Of a DNA stretch of 20,429 bases, positions 2 through 11,244 are shown piece after piece (the stretch's first letter is position 1; each line of letters opens with the position of its first letter). The stretch spans positions 1 to 20,429 of IMG/VR virus record IMGVR_UViG_3300045988_007995, one strand, 5' to 3'. A program made the translations under genes and the position numbers. This DNA is from a virus (Duplodnaviria > Heunggongvirae > Uroviricota > Caudoviricetes). Below the pieces are notes generated by a model. The model did no database searches, was not told the DNA's origin, and saw nothing but the letters and a program-made list of their open reading frames with translations.

Positions 2-400
2 TCACTCACTCAAGCAGGGCTAGTTGAAGGTTTTCAGTGGGTAGATGGAAGCTTCACAGAACATATTGAACTTATTGAAAAAAGGCCACCGAATGATGTC
101 GATGTTGTGACCTTTTTTCAATTCAGTAATGGCGATAATGATGCAATCGTAATCGGTAGAAAGCCAGAGCTATTTGATCATGATTTTGTTAAGAAGGAGT
201 TTTTCGTAGATTCCTACTTCCAAGAACTTAATCTACCAAGTCATGAGCTTGTTGAAATGACTGTATATTGGTACAGTATGTGGGCACATAGACGCGATCT
301 GTCGTGGAAGGGATTTATCCAAATCCCGTTAAACCCACAACTTGATGTTGTGGCAATGACTATACTTAATTCGGCTACTACTGAGGGGGTCAAACAATGA
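2..400 (+). CDS. 5'-truncated hypothetical protein; first gene of a two-gene operon in the immunity region (rexA-equivalent position)
   Basis: Reading frame is open from the window edge to TGA at 398-400 with no internal start before the end of the frame; stop overlaps the ATG of the next gene (ATGA at 397-400). AT-rich by eye. No motif I can assign. Confidence 0.55.
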   Translation, partial: SLTQAGLVEGFQWVDGSFTEHIELIEKRPPNDVDVVTFFQFSNGDNDAIVIGRKPELFDHDFVKKEFFVDSYFQELNLPSHELVEMTVYWYSMWAHRRDLSWKGFIQIPLNPQLDVVAMTILNSATTEGVKQ

Positions 401-1326
401 ATCGTAATGATTATGTTTTCGCTCTCAGTGAGCGCGAGCAAATAAGTAATCTATTAAAAAATATGCCAACAAGTCATTCTATTAGCCGAAAAAGCTTAGA
501 AGACCGTCTGGAGAAAGTTGAGCGATTAATTTCACAAGCTGACGTTCGAGAACATGAACCTACGCATGCTGTGTTAACTTTTAGAGGCCCAACAGTAGTT
601 GGCACGCATGGCATTTCAGCAGTATTTGGAACAAAAGCTATATCTTGTTTTAATGATGCAATAGCTTACTTGGCAACCTCTTTCAATGGCCCACTTCCTG
701 CATCAGGCAAGATACCAAACATAGAAAATAATCATCTCATGATTACCGCGTCAGCCCGTGGTTCTTTCGGATTCGTACTTGAAGAGTTTAGACCTGATGC
801 TCCTCTTGAATTCGATGAAGAAACCCCAGTAGCAAAAGCTATTAATAAGGCCAGAAAAATATTTCAGGCAAGCTTGGATAATGATGATGAAGAATTGTCT
901 GATGCTATAGAAAACTTAGACTCTCGGGCCTTAGATAAAATCAGAGCATTCATTCATTATCTGCATGAAAATAAAACAGTTTTTACACTTAAAAGCCAAG
1001 GTTTTAGCATCGTTTTTAGAGAGCCAAAACAGCTTGAAGCTGTATATCAACATCTCAGCAATGATAACATTCAGCAGGAAAAAATTATTGAGAACGTTAT
1101 ATTTTTGGGAACTCTTCCTAACAAGCGCCAATGTGAATTTATAGTTTTAGGTAACACTGATATCAGAACCGCTAGCATTGACAAAGCTGTAGATGACCCA
1201 GATATTATAAACAAGCACTTAGGAAGCGTTGCAACAGCCACGTTCCTGAAAAAAACTGTTGGTAAGGGCAAGCCCAGATACACTCTGGTTTCTCGACCTC
1301 AATGGGATATTAAATCAATCGATTAG
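397..1326 (+). CDS. hypothetical 309-aa protein; second gene of the immunity-region operon (rexB-equivalent position but not membrane-like)
   Basis: 309-codon ORF, ATG overlapping upstream stop (translational coupling), followed 15 nt later by a strong intrinsic terminator; AT-rich by eye; no long hydrophobic segments, no Walker or nuclease motif I can recognise. Confidence 0.7.
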   Translation: MNRNDYVFALSEREQISNLLKNMPTSHSISRKSLEDRLEKVERLISQADVREHEPTHAVLTFRGPTVVGTHGISAVFGTKAISCFNDAIAYLATSFNGPLPASGKIPNIENNHLMITASARGSFGFVLEEFRPDAPLEFDEETPVAKAINKARKIFQASLDNDDEELSDAIENLDSRALDKIRAFIHYLHENKTVFTLKSQGFSIVFREPKQLEAVYQHLSNDNIQQEKIIENVIFLGTLPNKRQCEFIVLGNTDIRTASIDKAVDDPDIINKHLGSVATATFLKKTVGKGKPRYTLVSRPQWDIKSID

Positions 1327-1340
1327 AATGAGCCCCTTCA

Positions 1341-1368
1341 GCCCGGCCTCCGCGCCGGGTTTTCTTTT
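1341..1368 (+). terminator. Rho-independent terminator closing the immunity-region operon (tImm-like position)
   Basis: GC-rich hairpin CCCGGC-ctccgc-GCCGGG (1342-1359) followed by TTTTCTTTT. Confidence 0.75.
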
Positions 1369-1518
1369 ACCATCAGCCCGTCAAAAACACACCTAACGAA
1401 TTGTATTTATTGAATAAATATAAATCACACTTATCACATTGCGCAATTCAGCTCCTACACATCCAGACTAGCTCTGCAAAACTTTAAAAAAATAAATCAA
1501 TAGTAAAAACATGCACAT

Positions 1519-1581
1519 AACCATTTGCGGTAATATTTTATCTCTAGCGGTGTTGACGAAAATACCTCCGGCGGTGATACT
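1519..1581 (+). promoter_or_regulatory. Lambda-type OL3-OL2-OL1 operator triplet overlapping a PL-like sigma70 promoter (rightward in this window)
   Basis: Three 17-bp sites AACCATTTGCGGTAATA (1519-1535), TATCTCTAGCGGTGTTG (1539-1555), TACCTCCGGCGGTGATA (1563-1579) with 3-bp and 7-bp spacers; -35 TTGACG (1553-1558), 17-bp spacer, -10 GATACT (1576-1581). By recollection each operator differs from lambda OL3/OL2/OL1 at only 1-2 positions and the downstream transcript start region (acacatcagcaggacgc) is lambda-like. Confidence 0.8.
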
Positions 1582-1626
1582 AAACACATCAGCAGGACGC
1601 TGGAAGCTAAATGGAACAGACTGGCA

Positions 1627-1673
1627 GGCTCTTTAAACAACGTCGACTCTCGACTACGTGGCTGAAAAGCCAG
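1627..1673 (+). promoter_or_regulatory. candidate nutL site (boxA plus boxB hairpin) in the PL leader
   Basis: boxA-like GGCTCTTTAAACAA (1627-1640) about 40 nt downstream of the predicted PL start, followed by small hairpin TGGCT-GAAA-AGCCA (1659-1672) with a GNRA-type loop; lies between PL and the N-like gene. Confidence 0.5.
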
Positions 1674-1770
1674 ATCACCCAACCACATAAGCTGTGGGAT
1701 GCAATGCCGAAGCAACCGTCTCAGGAGGAGCTTCGAGATTGCATCACCAAAGTTTATTCGGGAGGAATCT

Positions 1771-2043
1771 ATGTCCAGAAAAACAGAATTTAAAGGCACC
1801 TCAGCTTCTCGTCGTAGAGCTCGTCGCGCAAACCTGCAAAGTCAGGAGGCGATTAGCTCCGACAAGCTACACAGACCAACCCCCTCTCGAGTGGTCTTGC
1901 AATGCAAGCGCAAACCAGCAATGAGAGCAGAAGTAATAACACTGACAACGTTGACCAGAAAATATGAAGGCTCAACTTGTCTTCCAAATGTAGCTCTTTA
2001 CGCGGCAGGCTACCGGAAATCCAAACAACTGACAGCAAGATGA
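1771..2043 (+). CDS. N: N-like transcription antitermination protein (arginine-rich motif)
   Basis: ATG at 1771 preceded by GGAGG (1761-1765); N-terminal arginine-rich motif GTSASRRRARRANLQSQ resembling the ARM of lambdoid N proteins; first gene downstream of PL and nutL. The longer ORF from 1699 lacks an RBS and overlaps the leader. Confidence 0.7.
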   Translation: MSRKTEFKGTSASRRRARRANLQSQEAISSDKLHRPTPSRVVLQCKRKPAMRAEVITLTTLTRKYEGSTCLPNVALYAAGYRKSKQLTAR

Positions 2044-2104
2044 CTTGTGTTGGTCGCCAGAAAATGAAATTAGGCAGCAAACCACTTATTTGAGAGGAAT
2101 TAAT

Positions 2105-2728
2105 ATGTCATCAATCCGCTTAACTACGAGAATGAAAGAGAAAATCGCTCGTAACGCTTTAATTAAATCTGGGGTTTTCACTGAGCTTGAAGAAGTAACA
2201 AAGTTAAAGAACCAGCTTGCACTTGACGCCAGAGTTGTTGCGTTTGGCGGTAAAAAGAAAACTGAGGAAGTGGATCAGTTATCATCCAAGTTAATGGCTA
2301 TAAGCGAAGAACTTGAAAAGCTGGGATGTTCATTTTACTCATGCGATGCCCGTTCAACTTCAATTTATCTGACTGTATCTGGCAGAAGGGTTGGCTGGTA
2401 TTCATATGGGAAAGACGGCAACGGCGAAGATATATTGCTCCCTACTCCGACCAAAGATAAATGCATGTTTAGCGCAGAACACGAAATAACAAAAAGGTTT
2501 GATGAAATCTGCGCATTGCAACAAAAACTTGAAGCCAAGAAAAAGGATATCGAATCAAATGTATGGGCTGCTTTGAACTCAGTCACAACAGTTAAGCGAC
2601 TTATTGAAGTTTGGCCTGAAAGCAAAGAGTTGCTACCAAAAGAAGCAGATAAAGCAAGTACAGCACTTCCTGCTTTACGGGTAGAAGATTTGAATAAGAT
2701 GATTGGACTTCCTTCCGAGGTCGCATAA
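2105..2728 (+). CDS. hypothetical 207-aa protein (AT-rich insert between N and the tL1-like terminators)
   Basis: ATG at 2105 preceded by GAGAGGAA; ORF-track frame 2045-2728; AT-rich by eye; occupies the lambda ral/sieB/ea10 interval but resembles none of them to my recollection. Confidence 0.6.
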   Translation: MSSIRLTTRMKEKIARNALIKSGVFTELEEVTKLKNQLALDARVVAFGGKKKTEEVDQLSSKLMAISEELEKLGCSFYSCDARSTSIYLTVSGRRVGWYSYGKDGNGEDILLPTPTKDKCMFSAEHEITKRFDEICALQQKLEAKKKDIESNVWAALNSVTTVKRLIEVWPESKELLPKEADKASTALPALRVEDLNKMIGLPSEVA

Positions 2729-2862
2729 TCGTCCTTTATTTTTGGCATAAACAACAGAATAAACACTGCACTGTGTATTCATTCCAACGAGTGAATACAC
2801 GGAGCAATGTCGCTCGTAACCAAACAGGAGCCGACTTGTTCTGATTATTGGAAATCTTCTTT

Positions 2863-2888
2863 GCCCTCCAGTGTGAGGGCCTTTTTAT
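2863..2888 (+). terminator. intrinsic terminator (first of a tandem pair, tL1-like)
   Basis: Hairpin GCCCTC-cagtgt-GAGGGC (2863-2880) followed by CTTTTTA. Confidence 0.65.
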
Positions 2889-2902
2889 ATGCATACCAAT
2901 AA

Positions 2903-2924
2903 CGCTTCACTCGAGGCGTTTTTC
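2903..2924 (+). terminator. intrinsic terminator (second of the tandem pair)
   Basis: Hairpin CGCTTC-actc-GAGGCG (2903-2918, one G-U pair) followed by TTTTT. Confidence 0.6.
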
Positions 2925-2949
2925 GTTATGTATAAATAAGGAGCACACC

Positions 2950-3090
2950 ATGCAATATGCCATTGCAGGGTGGCCTGTTGCTGGCTGCCCTTCCGAATCT
3001 TTACTTGAACGAATCACCCGTAAATTACGTGACGGATGGAAACGCCTTATCGACATACTTAATCAGCCAGGAGTCCCAAAGAATGGATAA
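2950..3090 (+). CDS. cIII: CIII (FtsH/HflB inhibitor), truncated to 46 aa relative to lambda
   Basis: ATG at 2950 after AAGGAG; product MQYAIAGWPVAGCPSESLLERITRKLRDGWKRLIDILNQPGVPKNG matches my recollection of the first 46 residues of lambda CIII (54 aa); TAA at 3088-3090 where lambda continues. Confidence 0.8.
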   Translation: MQYAIAGWPVAGCPSESLLERITRKLRDGWKRLIDILNQPGVPKNG

Positions 3091-3196
3091 AACACTTATG
3101 GCTATCCAGACTAAATTCACTATCGCCGCTTTTATTGGCGATGAAAAGATGTTTCGTGAGGCCGTCGAAGCCTACAGAAAATGGAGGTCAAAATGA
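3083..3196 (+). CDS. kil: Kil-like FtsZ-inhibiting peptide
   Basis: ATG at 3083 overlapping the end of cIII as in lambda; product MDKTLMAIQTKFTIAAFIGDEKMFREAVEAYRKW... closely matches my recollection of the lambda Kil N-terminus; TGA at 3194-3196 overlaps the next start. Confidence 0.7.
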   Translation: MDKTLMAIQTKFTIAAFIGDEKMFREAVEAYRKWRSK

Positions 3197-3381
3197 TTCC
3201 GGTAGAACTGGCGAAAACTCCAGAGTTAAGTCGATTAAAAAGAGAATATCACATTGCTGAGGCTCGTTACTGGCGTAAAGCGGGAGATAAATCAAAGAAA
3301 CAACTTTGCTTATGGCAGGCACAAAGAGAGCGCATGAATGAGCGTGAGTTTCTTTCCTCCCCATCCGAATTACCATTCTGA
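3193..3381 (+). CDS. hypothetical small protein (62 aa)
   Basis: ATG at 3193 preceded by GGAGG (3183-3187); ATGA overlap with kil stop; sits where lambda has gam but is unrelated by eye. Confidence 0.5.
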   Translation: MIPVELAKTPELSRLKREYHIAEARYWRKAGDKSKKQLCLWQAQRERMNEREFLSSPSELPF

Positions 3382-3389
3382 GGCAAATT

Positions 3390-4070
3390 ATGGGAACTGC
3401 GACATTAATACTCGGTGAATCTGGCACCGGAAAATCAACCAGCATGAGAAATATCAATCCAGAGGAAGCAATACTTATAAAACCAATAGGCAAGCCGCTT
3501 CCATTTAAATCAAAAGACTGGCTGGCATGGGATGCCAGAGCAAAAAAAGGAACCGTAGTTACCACTGACAAATGGGACGTAATAGTTGCCGTAATTAAGC
3601 GTGCTCACGAATACGGGAAAAGAATCGTTATTGTTGATGACTTCCAGTATGTGATGAGCAATGAGTTTATGCGCCGCTCAGAAGAAAAATCGTTTGATAA
3701 ATTCACTGAGATAGGCCGCCACGCATGGGAGGTGATTAAGGCTGCACAGGATGCACCTGATGACCTGAGAGTCTATTTTCTCGCACACACCGAAGAAACC
3801 CCTATGGGGCGTGTGAAAATGAAGACTATCGGCAAAATGCTGGACGAGAAAATCACTGTCGAAGGCATGTTTACTATAGTTCTTCGCACCCTTACCCGCG
3901 ATGACCAGTTCTTTTTCACCACGAAAAACAACGGTGCAGACACTGTTAAATCCCCAATAGGAATGTTTGATTCCAATGAGATTGATAACGATCTCTCTTT
4001 CGTCGATGCCACTGTTTGTGATTACTACGGCATCAATAATGTTCATCAAATTAAGGAAAACGCCGCATGA
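3390..4070 (+). CDS. P-loop ATPase, Sak4-like / RecA-family recombination protein
   Basis: Walker A GESGTGKST near the N-terminus and Walker B-like RIVIVDD; about 226 aa; located where lambdoid phages carry the recombination module; AT-rich by eye. Confidence 0.7.
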   Translation: MGTATLILGESGTGKSTSMRNINPEEAILIKPIGKPLPFKSKDWLAWDARAKKGTVVTTDKWDVIVAVIKRAHEYGKRIVIVDDFQYVMSNEFMRRSEEKSFDKFTEIGRHAWEVIKAAQDAPDDLRVYFLAHTEETPMGRVKMKTIGKMLDEKITVEGMFTIVLRTLTRDDQFFFTTKNNGADTVKSPIGMFDSNEIDNDLSFVDATVCDYYGINNVHQIKENAA

Positions 4071-4654
4071 GCAACGTGATTTTTACTTATAACGAAGAAG
4101 CAGCACTGACCGCAGGGCAAGGTGGTTTTATTAACGAAACTGGCGCCCATATCATTACCATTACTGAAGCAGAACTAAAGAAATCAGAAAAAGGAGCCAA
4201 ATTTATTGAGTTTTCTGGAGAATCCGACGACGGACGTAAAATCCAGTATCTTAGCGTTTGTGTTCAGAAAAATGACGGAACGGAAAACAAATTTGGCGCA
4301 AATGTCGTTCACGCCATGATGGGGTGTGCCGGGATTGGACAATTAACACAGCATATGGTTTCCGCCAGTAAATTTGTTGCACCTGAATTTCATGGAAAGA
4401 AAATCGGGTTAGTGCTCCAGAAAGTATTAACCACAAACAAAAAGACTGGCGCAGACAGCTACCAGATGGAAATACGCATCCCGTTTATTGCACAAACAGG
4501 TCAAACCCTTAAAGAAAAGGCAGAAGGCAAGCAACCAGAAACTATCGCCGACATGGTTGCCAGCCTCAAAGATAAAGACAATCGCTCTAAAAACGTAAGC
4601 CAGAATCATGCAGATGATTATGGTTACAGCCAGAACGATTACCCTGCTTTCTGA
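4067..4654 (+). CDS. putative phage single-strand DNA-binding protein partner of the Sak4-like ATPase (DUF669-type is a guess)
   Basis: ATGA overlap with upstream ATPase gene; 195 aa; C-terminus ...DDYGYSQNDYPAF resembles an acidic SSB-type tail; family assignment is from recollection of Sak4-SSB gene pairs only. Confidence 0.5.
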   Translation: MSNVIFTYNEEAALTAGQGGFINETGAHIITITEAELKKSEKGAKFIEFSGESDDGRKIQYLSVCVQKNDGTENKFGANVVHAMMGCAGIGQLTQHMVSASKFVAPEFHGKKIGLVLQKVLTTNKKTGADSYQMEIRIPFIAQTGQTLKEKAEGKQPETIADMVASLKDKDNRSKNVSQNHADDYGYSQNDYPAF

Positions 4655-4677
4655 TTACTGAAAATAAGGCTCCCATT

Positions 4678-4974
4678 ATGCCAGCGCCTCTGTATGGTGC
4701 GGATGACCCGCGCAACTGCTCCGGTAGCTCCAAGGCGGAGGTGCTGGAGAATATCAAAAACAATTTCGACGCGTTTCTTGCTCTGACACCAGAAACAAAA
4801 GCAGAACGGATGTACCGACGCGATATACAACTCGCGCTAAAACAGGAGAAGGACCGAACAAACGAAACAGCAATGAGACCGTTGCGAAAAGCGACAATAG
4901 ACAAATTCCCTGAATATATCGACCCGCGCCTGCGTAATTACCGCTCACGTTATGGTGCTATCAGTAATGACTGA
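4678..4974 (+). CDS. hypothetical protein (98 aa)
   Basis: ORF in series with flanking plus-strand genes; weak RBS; no recognisable motif. Confidence 0.45.
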
Positions 4975-10153: not shown

Positions 10154-10486
10154 TTATTTCGGTAGATTGTGTTTGGCATTCGACTCGTCTATCACGTAAC
10201 GCATTGCAGTTCGACCGAGATTACCAGGATCTTCATGCAGACTCACTCGTGCCTTTAGGAGCACACATTCAGCCTTGACATAGTTTGCTGGAATTATTCC
10301 TACCTCGGCATTTTTAAATGCCTCCTTCACCGCCTCACCGTTGTACTGACCGCCAAGCAACTCTGTACATGTCAGGTTGTTATGGATAATTGCAAGGAGA
10401 TCTTTAATCTCTTCACGCAGGTTTACAATCGCCATCGCGGCATTGATAGCTGCGGCATAGCGCTCAGCTGCAGTCTTCTCTTTCAT
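10154..10486 (-). CDS. hypothetical 110-aa protein (opposite-strand insert gene A)
   Basis: Minus-strand ORF; start placed at MKEKTAAERY... (ATG complement at 10484-10486) preceded by AAGGTGA; the only long ORF in this interval on either strand. Confidence 0.55.
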   Translation of the reverse strand: MKEKTAAERYAAAINAAMAIVNLREEIKDLLAIIHNNLTCTELLGGQYNGEAVKEAFKNAEVGIIPANYVKAECVLLKARVSLHEDPGNLGRTAMRYVIDESNAKHNLPK

Positions 10487-10498
10487 GATTTTCACCTT

Positions 10499-10525
10499 AA
10501 AAAAATGCCCGGCGAATCGGCGGGC
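10499..10525 (-). promoter_or_regulatory. conserved hairpin plus T7 tract directly upstream of gene A RBS (copy 1 of duplicated 5' element)
   Basis: Minus strand reads GCCCGCCGATTCGCCGGGCATTTTTTTAAGGTGAAAATCATG; terminator-like stem GCCCG/CGGGC then U-tract, immediately followed by the RBS. Confidence 0.5.
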
Positions 10526-10530
10526 TGATT

Positions 10531-10542
10531 GTGACATGTCAC
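10531..10542. repeat. palindrome GTGACATGTCAC (copy 3), 4 nt downstream of the gene B stop codon
   Basis: Exact 12-bp palindrome in context CTGaTTGTGACATGTCACGGcGTTA. Confidence 0.9.
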
Positions 10543-10546
10543 GGCG

Positions 10547-10969
10547 TTAGAAGGTTATTTTATCGAATGCGGCGTTGATTGCCTTGGCGTCCTGCTCAGC
10601 ACCAACCACATCAAGTAAAGATCTTTTACTAAGCACTTCAGCCAGGCATTGTAACTTCATGTTGTATAAGTTTTCGCGCATGTAATCATCATCACTTTTT
10701 TCTTTGGCGTATACAGCGCGAGAAATATCAAACACATTGCCTTTTTCCATTTCAGTTTTCTGCGCTGAAATCCAGTCATGGCAAGTAACTCCTATTCCAT
10801 GGTCATCGCTAAGCGTTAACCCGGCAAGTCGCTCACCTGGAATTGCTTCACAAAGCATTTCATTTCCTGCAAAAACACCATAAAAAATTGAGTCATCACC
10901 CTGAACAATGCGTACATATTTGCACGGCCATTCATTTAGATATTTAGCTAGCATGTCGGCTGTTTTCAT
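10547..10969 (-). CDS. hypothetical 140-aa protein (opposite-strand insert gene B)
   Basis: Minus-strand ORF; start placed at MKTADMLAKY... (ATG complement at 10967-10969) preceded by TAGGTGA; upstream ORF-track extension crosses the hairpin/T-tract and is rejected. Confidence 0.55.
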   Translation of the reverse strand: MKTADMLAKYLNEWPCKYVRIVQGDDSIFYGVFAGNEMLCEAIPGERLAGLTLSDDHGIGVTCHDWISAQKTEMEKGNVFDISRAVYAKEKSDDDYMRENLYNMKLQCLAEVLSKRSLLDVVGAEQDAKAINAAFDKITF

Positions 10970-10979
10970 GATCTCACCT

Positions 10980-11005
10980 AAAAAAAATGCCCGGCGAATC
11001 GGGCG
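10980..11005 (-). promoter_or_regulatory. conserved hairpin plus T8 tract directly upstream of gene B RBS (copy 2 of duplicated 5' element)
   Basis: Minus strand reads CGCCCGATTCGCCGGGCATTTTTTTTAGGTGAGATCATG; about 40 nt alignable with copy 1. Confidence 0.5.
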
Positions 11006-11045
11006 AACTGGAAGCAATGAGTTATGCCTTCCGTGGCTGTACTGG

Positions 11046-11085
11046 TTTACAGCATGAAGCCATCGCAATGGCGTCATGCTGTAAA
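11046..11085. repeat. 40-bp near-perfect nested palindrome
   Basis: TTTACAGCATGA-aGCCATcgcaATGGCg-TCATGCTGTAAA: 12-bp outer arms with a 5-bp inner dyad. Confidence 0.85.
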
Positions 11086-11124
11086 AAGGGCGGTGATAGT
11101 CCTTCAAGGGAAACCATCACCGCC
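11083..11124 (-). terminator. minus-strand terminator 43 nt downstream of the tRNA
   Basis: 9-bp stem GGCGGTGAT/ATCACCGCC with 18-nt loop, followed on the minus strand by CTTTTT. Confidence 0.5.
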
Positions 11125-11167
11125 AAGCCCCTGGAACTTCTGGCATCACGGTCCTTAGGCGTGATTC

Positions 11168-11244
11168 TGGCGTGGCATGCAGGATTCGAACCTGCGACCA
11201 ACCGCTTAGAAAGCGGTTGCTCTGTCCAGCTGAGCTAATGCCAC
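11168..11244 (-). tRNA. tRNA-Arg (anticodon UCU), phage-encoded
   Basis: 77-nt cloverleaf on the minus strand: acceptor GTGGCAT/ATGCCAC, D-stem GCTC/GAGC, anticodon stem ACCGC/GCGGT with loop TT-TCT-AA, T-stem GCAGG/CCTGC with TTCGAAT loop, discriminator G and encoded CCA. Confidence 0.85.

Follow-up and report, generated by a model that had tools for sequence, protein, structure and literature searches.

The window (the whole 20,429-nt stretch of DNA analysed here) carries, in the slot between the antiterminator gene N and cIII of a lambdoid prophage, a 207-aa gene whose product is certainly a member of the Nmad5 family. That this is a dispensable, horizontally swapped accessory gene is well supported: it is exchanged as an exact cassette, is split by an insertion sequence, occurs in only 211 of 5426 complete E. 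coli genomes, is spread patchily among N4-like phages, and can be deleted from a Dhillonvirus with the phage remaining viable.

Family membership rests on a match to Pfam PF18757 (Nmad5, in full 'nucleotide modification associated domain 5') that spans profile positions 1-206 of 206 and scores 239.7 bits (cut-off 27; E=4.2e-71). The protein also matches PHROG 1965, annotated as function unknown (E=1.1e-81), and is 100% identical to RefSeq WP_000095087.1, named 'Nmad5 family putative nucleotide modification protein'. As a catalogued gene it is no new discovery; the earlier note, made from the sequence alone, was mistaken in calling the protein not recognisable. The homology search run as a check returned no homology to a housekeeping function. 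The Nmad names reportedly go back to Iyer et al. 2013.

The Nmad5 gene in the early-left operon

The features of the left part of the window are as follows.

1553-1581, plus strand: pL-type promoter, TTGACG-17-GATACT (sigma-70-like scan)
1771-2043, plus strand: antiterminator N, 90 aa (Pfam N_peptide, E=1e-31; PHROG 271)
2092-2099, plus strand: Shine-Dalgarno GAGAGGAA of the Nmad5 gene, 5 nt before the ATG (sequence)
2105-2728, plus strand: Nmad5-family gene, 207 aa (PF18757, PHROG 1965, identity to WP_000095087.1, dN/dS ~0.3)
2771-2802, plus strand: 14-bp RNA hairpin 3' of the Nmad5 gene (RNA fold)
2863-2888, plus strand: first intrinsic-terminator-like site after pL, GCCCTC-loop-GAGGGC then a T-run (hairpin 2863-2880; scan)
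2901-2927, plus strand: second terminator-like hairpin, just 5' of cIII (hairpin 2901-2920; scan)
2937-3090, plus strand: cIII thermoregulator element and cIII (cIII 2950-3090; Rfam RF01804 Lambda_thermo at 2937-2995, 88.5 bits)
3390-4070, plus strand: Sak4-like gene (PHROG)
4067-4654, plus strand: SSB-type gene (PHROG)

The open reading frame runs from an ATG start to a TAA stop, at exactly the coordinates given for a 207-aa gene in the earlier note. A mechanical ORF listing gives a longer version of 227 aa with a TTG start at 2045; the 207-aa start is the right one, as MSSIRLT is where the family profile begins and is the start of every homolog. Close relatives supplied 76 copies with 61 distinct alleles; the gene is intact in 60 of the 61 and dN/dS is ~0.29-0.31, which shows that this is a real coding gene under purifying selection. 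A membrane protein is ruled out by a maximum Kyte-Doolittle value of 0.61 over 19 residues.

The pL-type site is the only sigma-70-like site found by the promoter scan in 1300-3400; the same scan found no separate promoter for the Nmad5 gene in this region. From direct reading, the sequence around 1553-1581 presumably corresponds to the lambda OL operator and pL. It is followed at 1627-1672 (plus strand) by a leader which we take to be nutL-like, reading by eye from the lambda nut sites; it has a boxA-like GGCTCTTTAAACAA and a boxB-like hairpin TGGCT-GAAA-AGCCA. The N protein is 98.9% identical to that of phage VT2-Sakai. A 61-nt spacer separates N from the Nmad5 gene, and a consensus scan found no terminator-like site in this gap. 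The Nmad5 gene is the first ORF after N and lies upstream of the first terminator-like sites (2863 and 2901), two hairpins located where the earlier note has its tL1-like terminators. Judged from this arrangement, the gene is probably immediate-early and N-independent, transcribed from pL together with N; in the lysogen it would be silent.

The region 2725-2925 folds far better than shuffled sequences (z=-5.3). The hairpin at 2771-2802 is kept in 77-78 of 83 close E. coli loci and the terminator-like site at 2863-2888 in 74-76 of the 83. Both are also present in VT2-Sakai, which does not carry the Nmad5 gene; these elements are therefore features of the right border of the slot rather than of the gene. 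On its downstream side the variable slot ends at cIII, the translation of which agrees with lambda CIII; the corresponding gene in a twin locus matches Pfam Lambda_CIII. After cIII the gene order is kil, a small ORF, a Sak4-like annealing protein, an SSB-type protein and Abc2.

In lambda, ral, sieB and ea10 are located after tL1 and so depend on N, and sieB has its own expression in lysogens. The Nmad5 gene shares with these genes the slot between N and cIII and the pL operon; it differs in its position, which is before the first terminator-like site.

The Nmad5 gene has a GC content of 0.407 (GC3 0.356), below that of N (0.480), cIII (0.468) and the whole window (0.486); this places it at the 5.7th percentile among 624-nt windows. 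Composition does differ from the two neighbours when computed, as had been proposed. However, the AT-richness is regional: the immunity and early-left segment 1-4654 has a GC content of 0.420 and the genes upstream of pL 0.385-0.395 (orf309, 0.385). Since the left segment as a whole is AT-rich, the gene is no compositional island in its own neighbourhood.

Two AT-rich genes in the same orientation (107-1326, plus strand) lie between pL and cI, which is off the window; this is the position of rexA and rexB in lambda. The first encodes the C-terminal part of a DUF6932 protein that is complete in a twin prophage (locus L099, 4751-5296). The second encodes a 309-aa protein of PHROG 18731 (function unknown), and a terminator-like site at 1340-1361 ends the pair. 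The sole match of the pair in a defence database is a weak one to PDC-M63A (E=0.0046). The two genes are a candidate lysogen-expressed defence pair.

A further segment, at 10154-11244 (minus strand), lies between the terminase and portal genes. It contains two opposite-strand ORFs (PHROG 27507 and 4846; function unknown), and a tRNA-Arg(tct) is located at 11168-11244. The arrangement suggests that something moron-like has been inserted into the packaging module.

Cassette exchange and distribution

The exchange is most clearly seen against VT2-Sakai. The window and VT2-Sakai are alike at the DNA level up to 2094; identity is then lost and returns from 2733. In VT2-Sakai, orf20 (83 aa) replaces exactly the Nmad5 ORF and the slot reads orf20, orf19, ea10. 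Phage 2G7b, with a 98.9% identical N, has sieB and ral in the same slot. These occupants agree with the earlier assignment of the gene to the interval where lambda carries ral, sieB and ea10. Nmad5 has no BLASTP match better than E=1.8 to SieB, Ral, Ea10-like proteins or the other occupants in 2G7b, VT2-Sakai and mEp234. Of the suggestion of an accessory or anti-defence gene, accessory status is borne out (cassette swap, IS disruption and patchy spread); nothing found here points to an anti-restriction or exclusion function, the protein being unlike Ral, SieB and Ea10 and without a match in PADLOC-DB.

Past ~2887, close relatives of the window hold many different cargo genes. A 31-codon ORF remnant lies at 2807-2902 on the plus strand (MSLVTKQEPTCSDYWKSSLPSSVRA...); its first ~20 residues are the same as those that open 354-356-aa proteins located at this place in other prophages (e.g. 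locus L019, 6703-7767). The remnant marks a mosaic junction of cargo-gene exchange.

Loss of the gene can be observed in Stx2a-converting phages. In LC616039 (locus L088, 1672-2980), a 1.3-kb IS3-family element splits Nmad5 after codon 35; it has a 3-bp GAA target duplication, an OrfA of 108 aa, an OrfB of 296 aa and terminal repeats TGAACCGCCCCGG. The insertion was verified in this one record, and all Stx2a-converting phages among the matches listed have the same truncated Nmad5 match. We take the element to resemble IS629.

The window has its own recombination module of the Sak4 type at 3193-4974 (plus strand), consisting of a small PHROG 1723 ORF, the Sak4-like ATPase, the SSB-type protein and the anti-RecBCD protein Abc2. 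The closest Nmad5 carriers have Red or RecT instead, which indicates free reassortment around the gene.

All contexts examined for Nmad5 genes are phage or prophage; carriers include Stx phages, P22-like, N4-like and M6-like phages, Dhillonvirus and vibriophages. Kapi1_018 of phage Kapi1 is 99% identical to the window protein and Stx phage copies have ~93% identity. In the 83 close E. coli loci, the gene is located directly 3' of N, with three unrelated N types upstream. The complete order, cI, DUF6932, 309-aa ORF, N, Nmad5 and cIII, can be seen in the twin prophage of E. coli AR_0017.

Klebsiella and Serratia prophages that carry no N have a repressor, a terminator, a sigma-70-like promoter matching at 10 of 12 positions, a leader of 200-265 nt and Nmad5 as the first ORF. 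One Providencia prophage has a similar layout. In a Providencia prophage (locus L093, 3880-5001), 1.1 kb without a called plus-strand gene extends from the repressor to Nmad5, which far exceeds the 200-265 nt leaders. A role as an antiterminator substitute, considered because Nmad5 is the first pL gene in the N-less prophages, is rejected, as virulent phages carry family members too, in unrelated locations.

In 21 family clusters (70% identity), the three genes flanking Nmad5 on each side were counted. CI-like repressors come first (8 phrog_4, 8 HTH_3, 6 Peptidase_S24); AAA_24/Sak4 (3) and thymidylate-synthase types (3) are rarer. Other positions vary between phages: the gene is in the nin region in SPN3UB, between ThyX and a Cas4-like nuclease in the N4-like phage MY01, and forms a divergent cassette among capsid or tail genes in Dhillonvirus and VchM-138. 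Only a few genera of N4-like phages carry the gene; Nmad5 as a core gene of these phages is accordingly rejected. A modification-gene neighbourhood is confined to M6-like phages, with a looser form in N4-like phages.

In a 74.7-kb N4-like contig (locus L102, 5021-6977 and 10955-12189), the Nmad5 homolog directly follows NUDIX-like and Tad2-like (anti-Thoeris family) genes, and ThyX and a Sequestin-family gene are nearby. Such proximity to known anti-defence families was seen in this one contig.

Family conservation and published data on homologs

With 2290 clusters at 50% identity (E<=1e-3), this is a large family. Among the best 150 of these clusters, nearly all members are stand-alone proteins of 190-220 aa, as is the 207-aa window protein. 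Conservation was measured on 146 homologs (25-57% identity) and two further alignments. A short N-terminal signature, RLT..I..NA..K.G, and a GG turn are conserved; the strongest conservation is found in the C-terminal 45 residues, T-x-K-[K/R]-L-x3-W-P-E-x2-E-L-L-P ... L-P-A ... L-N-x2-I-G-L-P. The window protein is like the family across the whole profile, in its size of ~200 aa and in all these motifs. It has the family positions R5, I14, A18, G23, R43, G48-G49, G93, T162 and L166 and also keeps W170-P171-E172, E175-L176, P178, L188-P189, L196-N197 and G201-L202-P203. Most of the residues invariant across the family are Gly, Pro, Leu or Trp; they are concentrated in the C-terminal tail, where pLDDT is low.

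Searches for a function gave little. The predicted fold matches no solved structure and no enzyme-like fold was found; a PDB sequence-profile search was empty, NCBIfam has no match to the window protein, and no PADLOC-DB family of known or candidate defence proteins was matched at E<=0.1. In the literature searched, no activity of Nmad5 proteins on nucleotides or DNA is reported. The 'NMAD' domain of the DefensePredictor paper was considered as a possible Nmad5 and rejected, as it is Nmad2.

Genetic data are available for Dhillonvirus. Mutants that escape the Tmn defence carry K216E (SM_A8) or K296E (SMS22) in an Nmad5-domain protein, and reversion of the mutation brings back Tmn sensitivity (PMC11846954). 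Deletion of nmad5 is viable and does not give Tmn escape, while cloning of the wild-type gene failed and the gene appeared toxic (PMC11846954). These data are ambiguous: since deletion does not give escape, Nmad5 is neither the sole trigger nor a proven inhibitor of Tmn. Anti-Tmn (ORF35 of phage SMS22) is a protein other than Nmad5. The Dhillonvirus protein is longer than the window protein (254-334 aa) and can be aligned pairwise only over the C-terminal 100 residues; within this C-terminal half, the SM_A8 homolog has 33% identity to the window protein. K216 of SM_A8 aligns with R165 of the window protein, inside the conserved TxK[K/R]L..WPE motif. What connects an Nmad5 homolog to Tmn, a KAP-NTPase defence, is this genetic link, whereby a K-to-E change at the R165 equivalent gives escape.

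Biochemical data are available for M6, in which the thymidine hypermodification pathway has been rebuilt from four purified enzymes, gp54, gp51, gp53 and gp52; the Nmad5 homolog is not among them (PMC8989533). In the M6-like phages SN1 (SN1_019) and CN1, the homolog is located within the thymidine-hypermodification cluster and adjoins a thymidylate-synthase-like hydroxymethylase.

Possible functions of the Nmad5 protein

The explanation preferred here is that Nmad5 acts early as a non-enzymatic effector, its conserved C-terminal module binding a defence component or a host factor that is itself conserved; this is put forward as a hypothesis, with somewhat less than even confidence. Expressed from pL, Nmad5 would be among the first proteins made after infection or induction and would be silent in the lysogen. 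Here the protein would not be a base-modifying enzyme but would act by binding. The predicted four-helix body and beta-hairpin would present the near-invariant C-terminal segment, which would dock on a conserved bacterial factor or a defence protein; docking would alter the reaction of the cell to the incoming phage, making the protein a counter-defence or host-takeover factor. Several observations lie behind the hypothesis: the gene is placed early and is dispensable, no enzyme-like fold was found, a Tmn escape mutation falls in the motif, a homolog appeared toxic, and the slot is equivalent to that of ral and sieB. Since the motif is very strongly conserved across phages of many hosts, a core host target fits better than a fast-evolving defence protein. 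The nature of the invariant residues in the low-pLDDT tail, and the completeness of the M6 pathway without Nmad5, argue that the protein is not an evident enzyme; the conserved polar residues R5, R43, T162, E172, E175 and N197 could, though, form an active site. Counted against an effector is the fact that in several lineages the gene adjoins replication, recombination or thymidylate-synthase genes.

By analogy, the logic resembles that of T7 gene 0.3 (Ocr), which is dispensable and belongs to the earliest genes expressed as the phage genome enters. The likeness would be in logic only: in contrast to Ocr, the window protein is no acidic DNA mimic (pI 8.2; family median 7.7) and its predicted fold is unrelated. 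An acidic DNA-mimic reading is rejected on the basis of the pI.

Two other functions have been considered. As an accessory of nucleotide or DNA modification, the protein may be a DNA-binding or adaptor subunit, working here with host enzymes, e.g. by stimulating methylation as Ral does. This would fit the homologs inside the SN1 and CN1 cluster and next to ThyX in MY01, and the presence of ral in the same slot in 2G7b. It is nevertheless improbable: the base-modification neighbourhood for which the family is named is absent at the window gene, and no modification, thymidylate-synthase or kinase genes are found among the genes annotated in the window, in the twin prophage stretch from AR_0017 or in the 10.6-kb segment of Kapi1 annotated around Nmad5. 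A thymidylate-synthase-type neighbour occurs in only 3 of the 21 family clusters, the M6 pathway does not need the homolog to be complete in vitro, and there is neither similarity to Ral nor an enzyme-like fold. The same low degree of belief is given to an accessory of replication or recombination, which would bind DNA or its ends, or load or regulate the Sak4, SSB and nuclease module. The gene does recur upstream of Sak4/AAA_24, SSB-type, Cas4-like (DUF2800) and PolA genes (in the window, the Providencia prophage, loci L100 and L101, and MY01), and the N-terminal third of the protein is basic (pI 9.2). However, the E. coli relatives pair the gene with RecT (Kapi1), with Gam-Bet-Exo (Stx phages) or with Sak4, and a Sak4 gene is present in only 6 of 87 loci; an obligatory Sak4 partnership is rejected because close relatives have RecT or Red instead. 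The divergent cassettes among structural genes in Dhillonvirus and VchM-138, and the loss of the gene by IS insertion in the Stx2a phage records examined, also count against such a role.

It is very unlikely that the gene serves the prophage in exclusion or defence and protects the lysogen in the manner of sieB or rexAB. The gene occupies the slot that holds sieB in 2G7b and is AT-rich, as are many morons. In opposition to this, it lies behind the repressor-controlled pL with no promoter-like site of its own found, the family occurs in virulent N4-like, Dhillonvirus and M6-like phages, and the protein has no PADLOC match and no similarity to SieB.

The early-effector hypothesis can be extended to the family. 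Nmad5 might be a large class of early effectors with a fold of its own, whose invariant, peptide-like C-terminal module contacts an immune sensor or a conserved factor of the bacterium, perhaps in a pathway watched by Tmn-type KAP NTPases; this extension is speculative and on balance unlikely. A variant is that in lambdoid phages the protein would be Ral-like, steering host enzymes to protect the entering DNA. If this early-effector class exists, the 'nucleotide modification' name would be a by-product of the gene order of one lineage. The family is very widespread in phages (~2300 clusters), and for most of its members the present name has poor support. As a recurrent first ORF of the early-left operon, a clean cassette and a gene with a single genetic link to Tmn, Nmad5 is an appealing experimental target. 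If it is a counter-defence or host-takeover factor, it would bear on phage-therapy engineering and on the biology of Stx phages.
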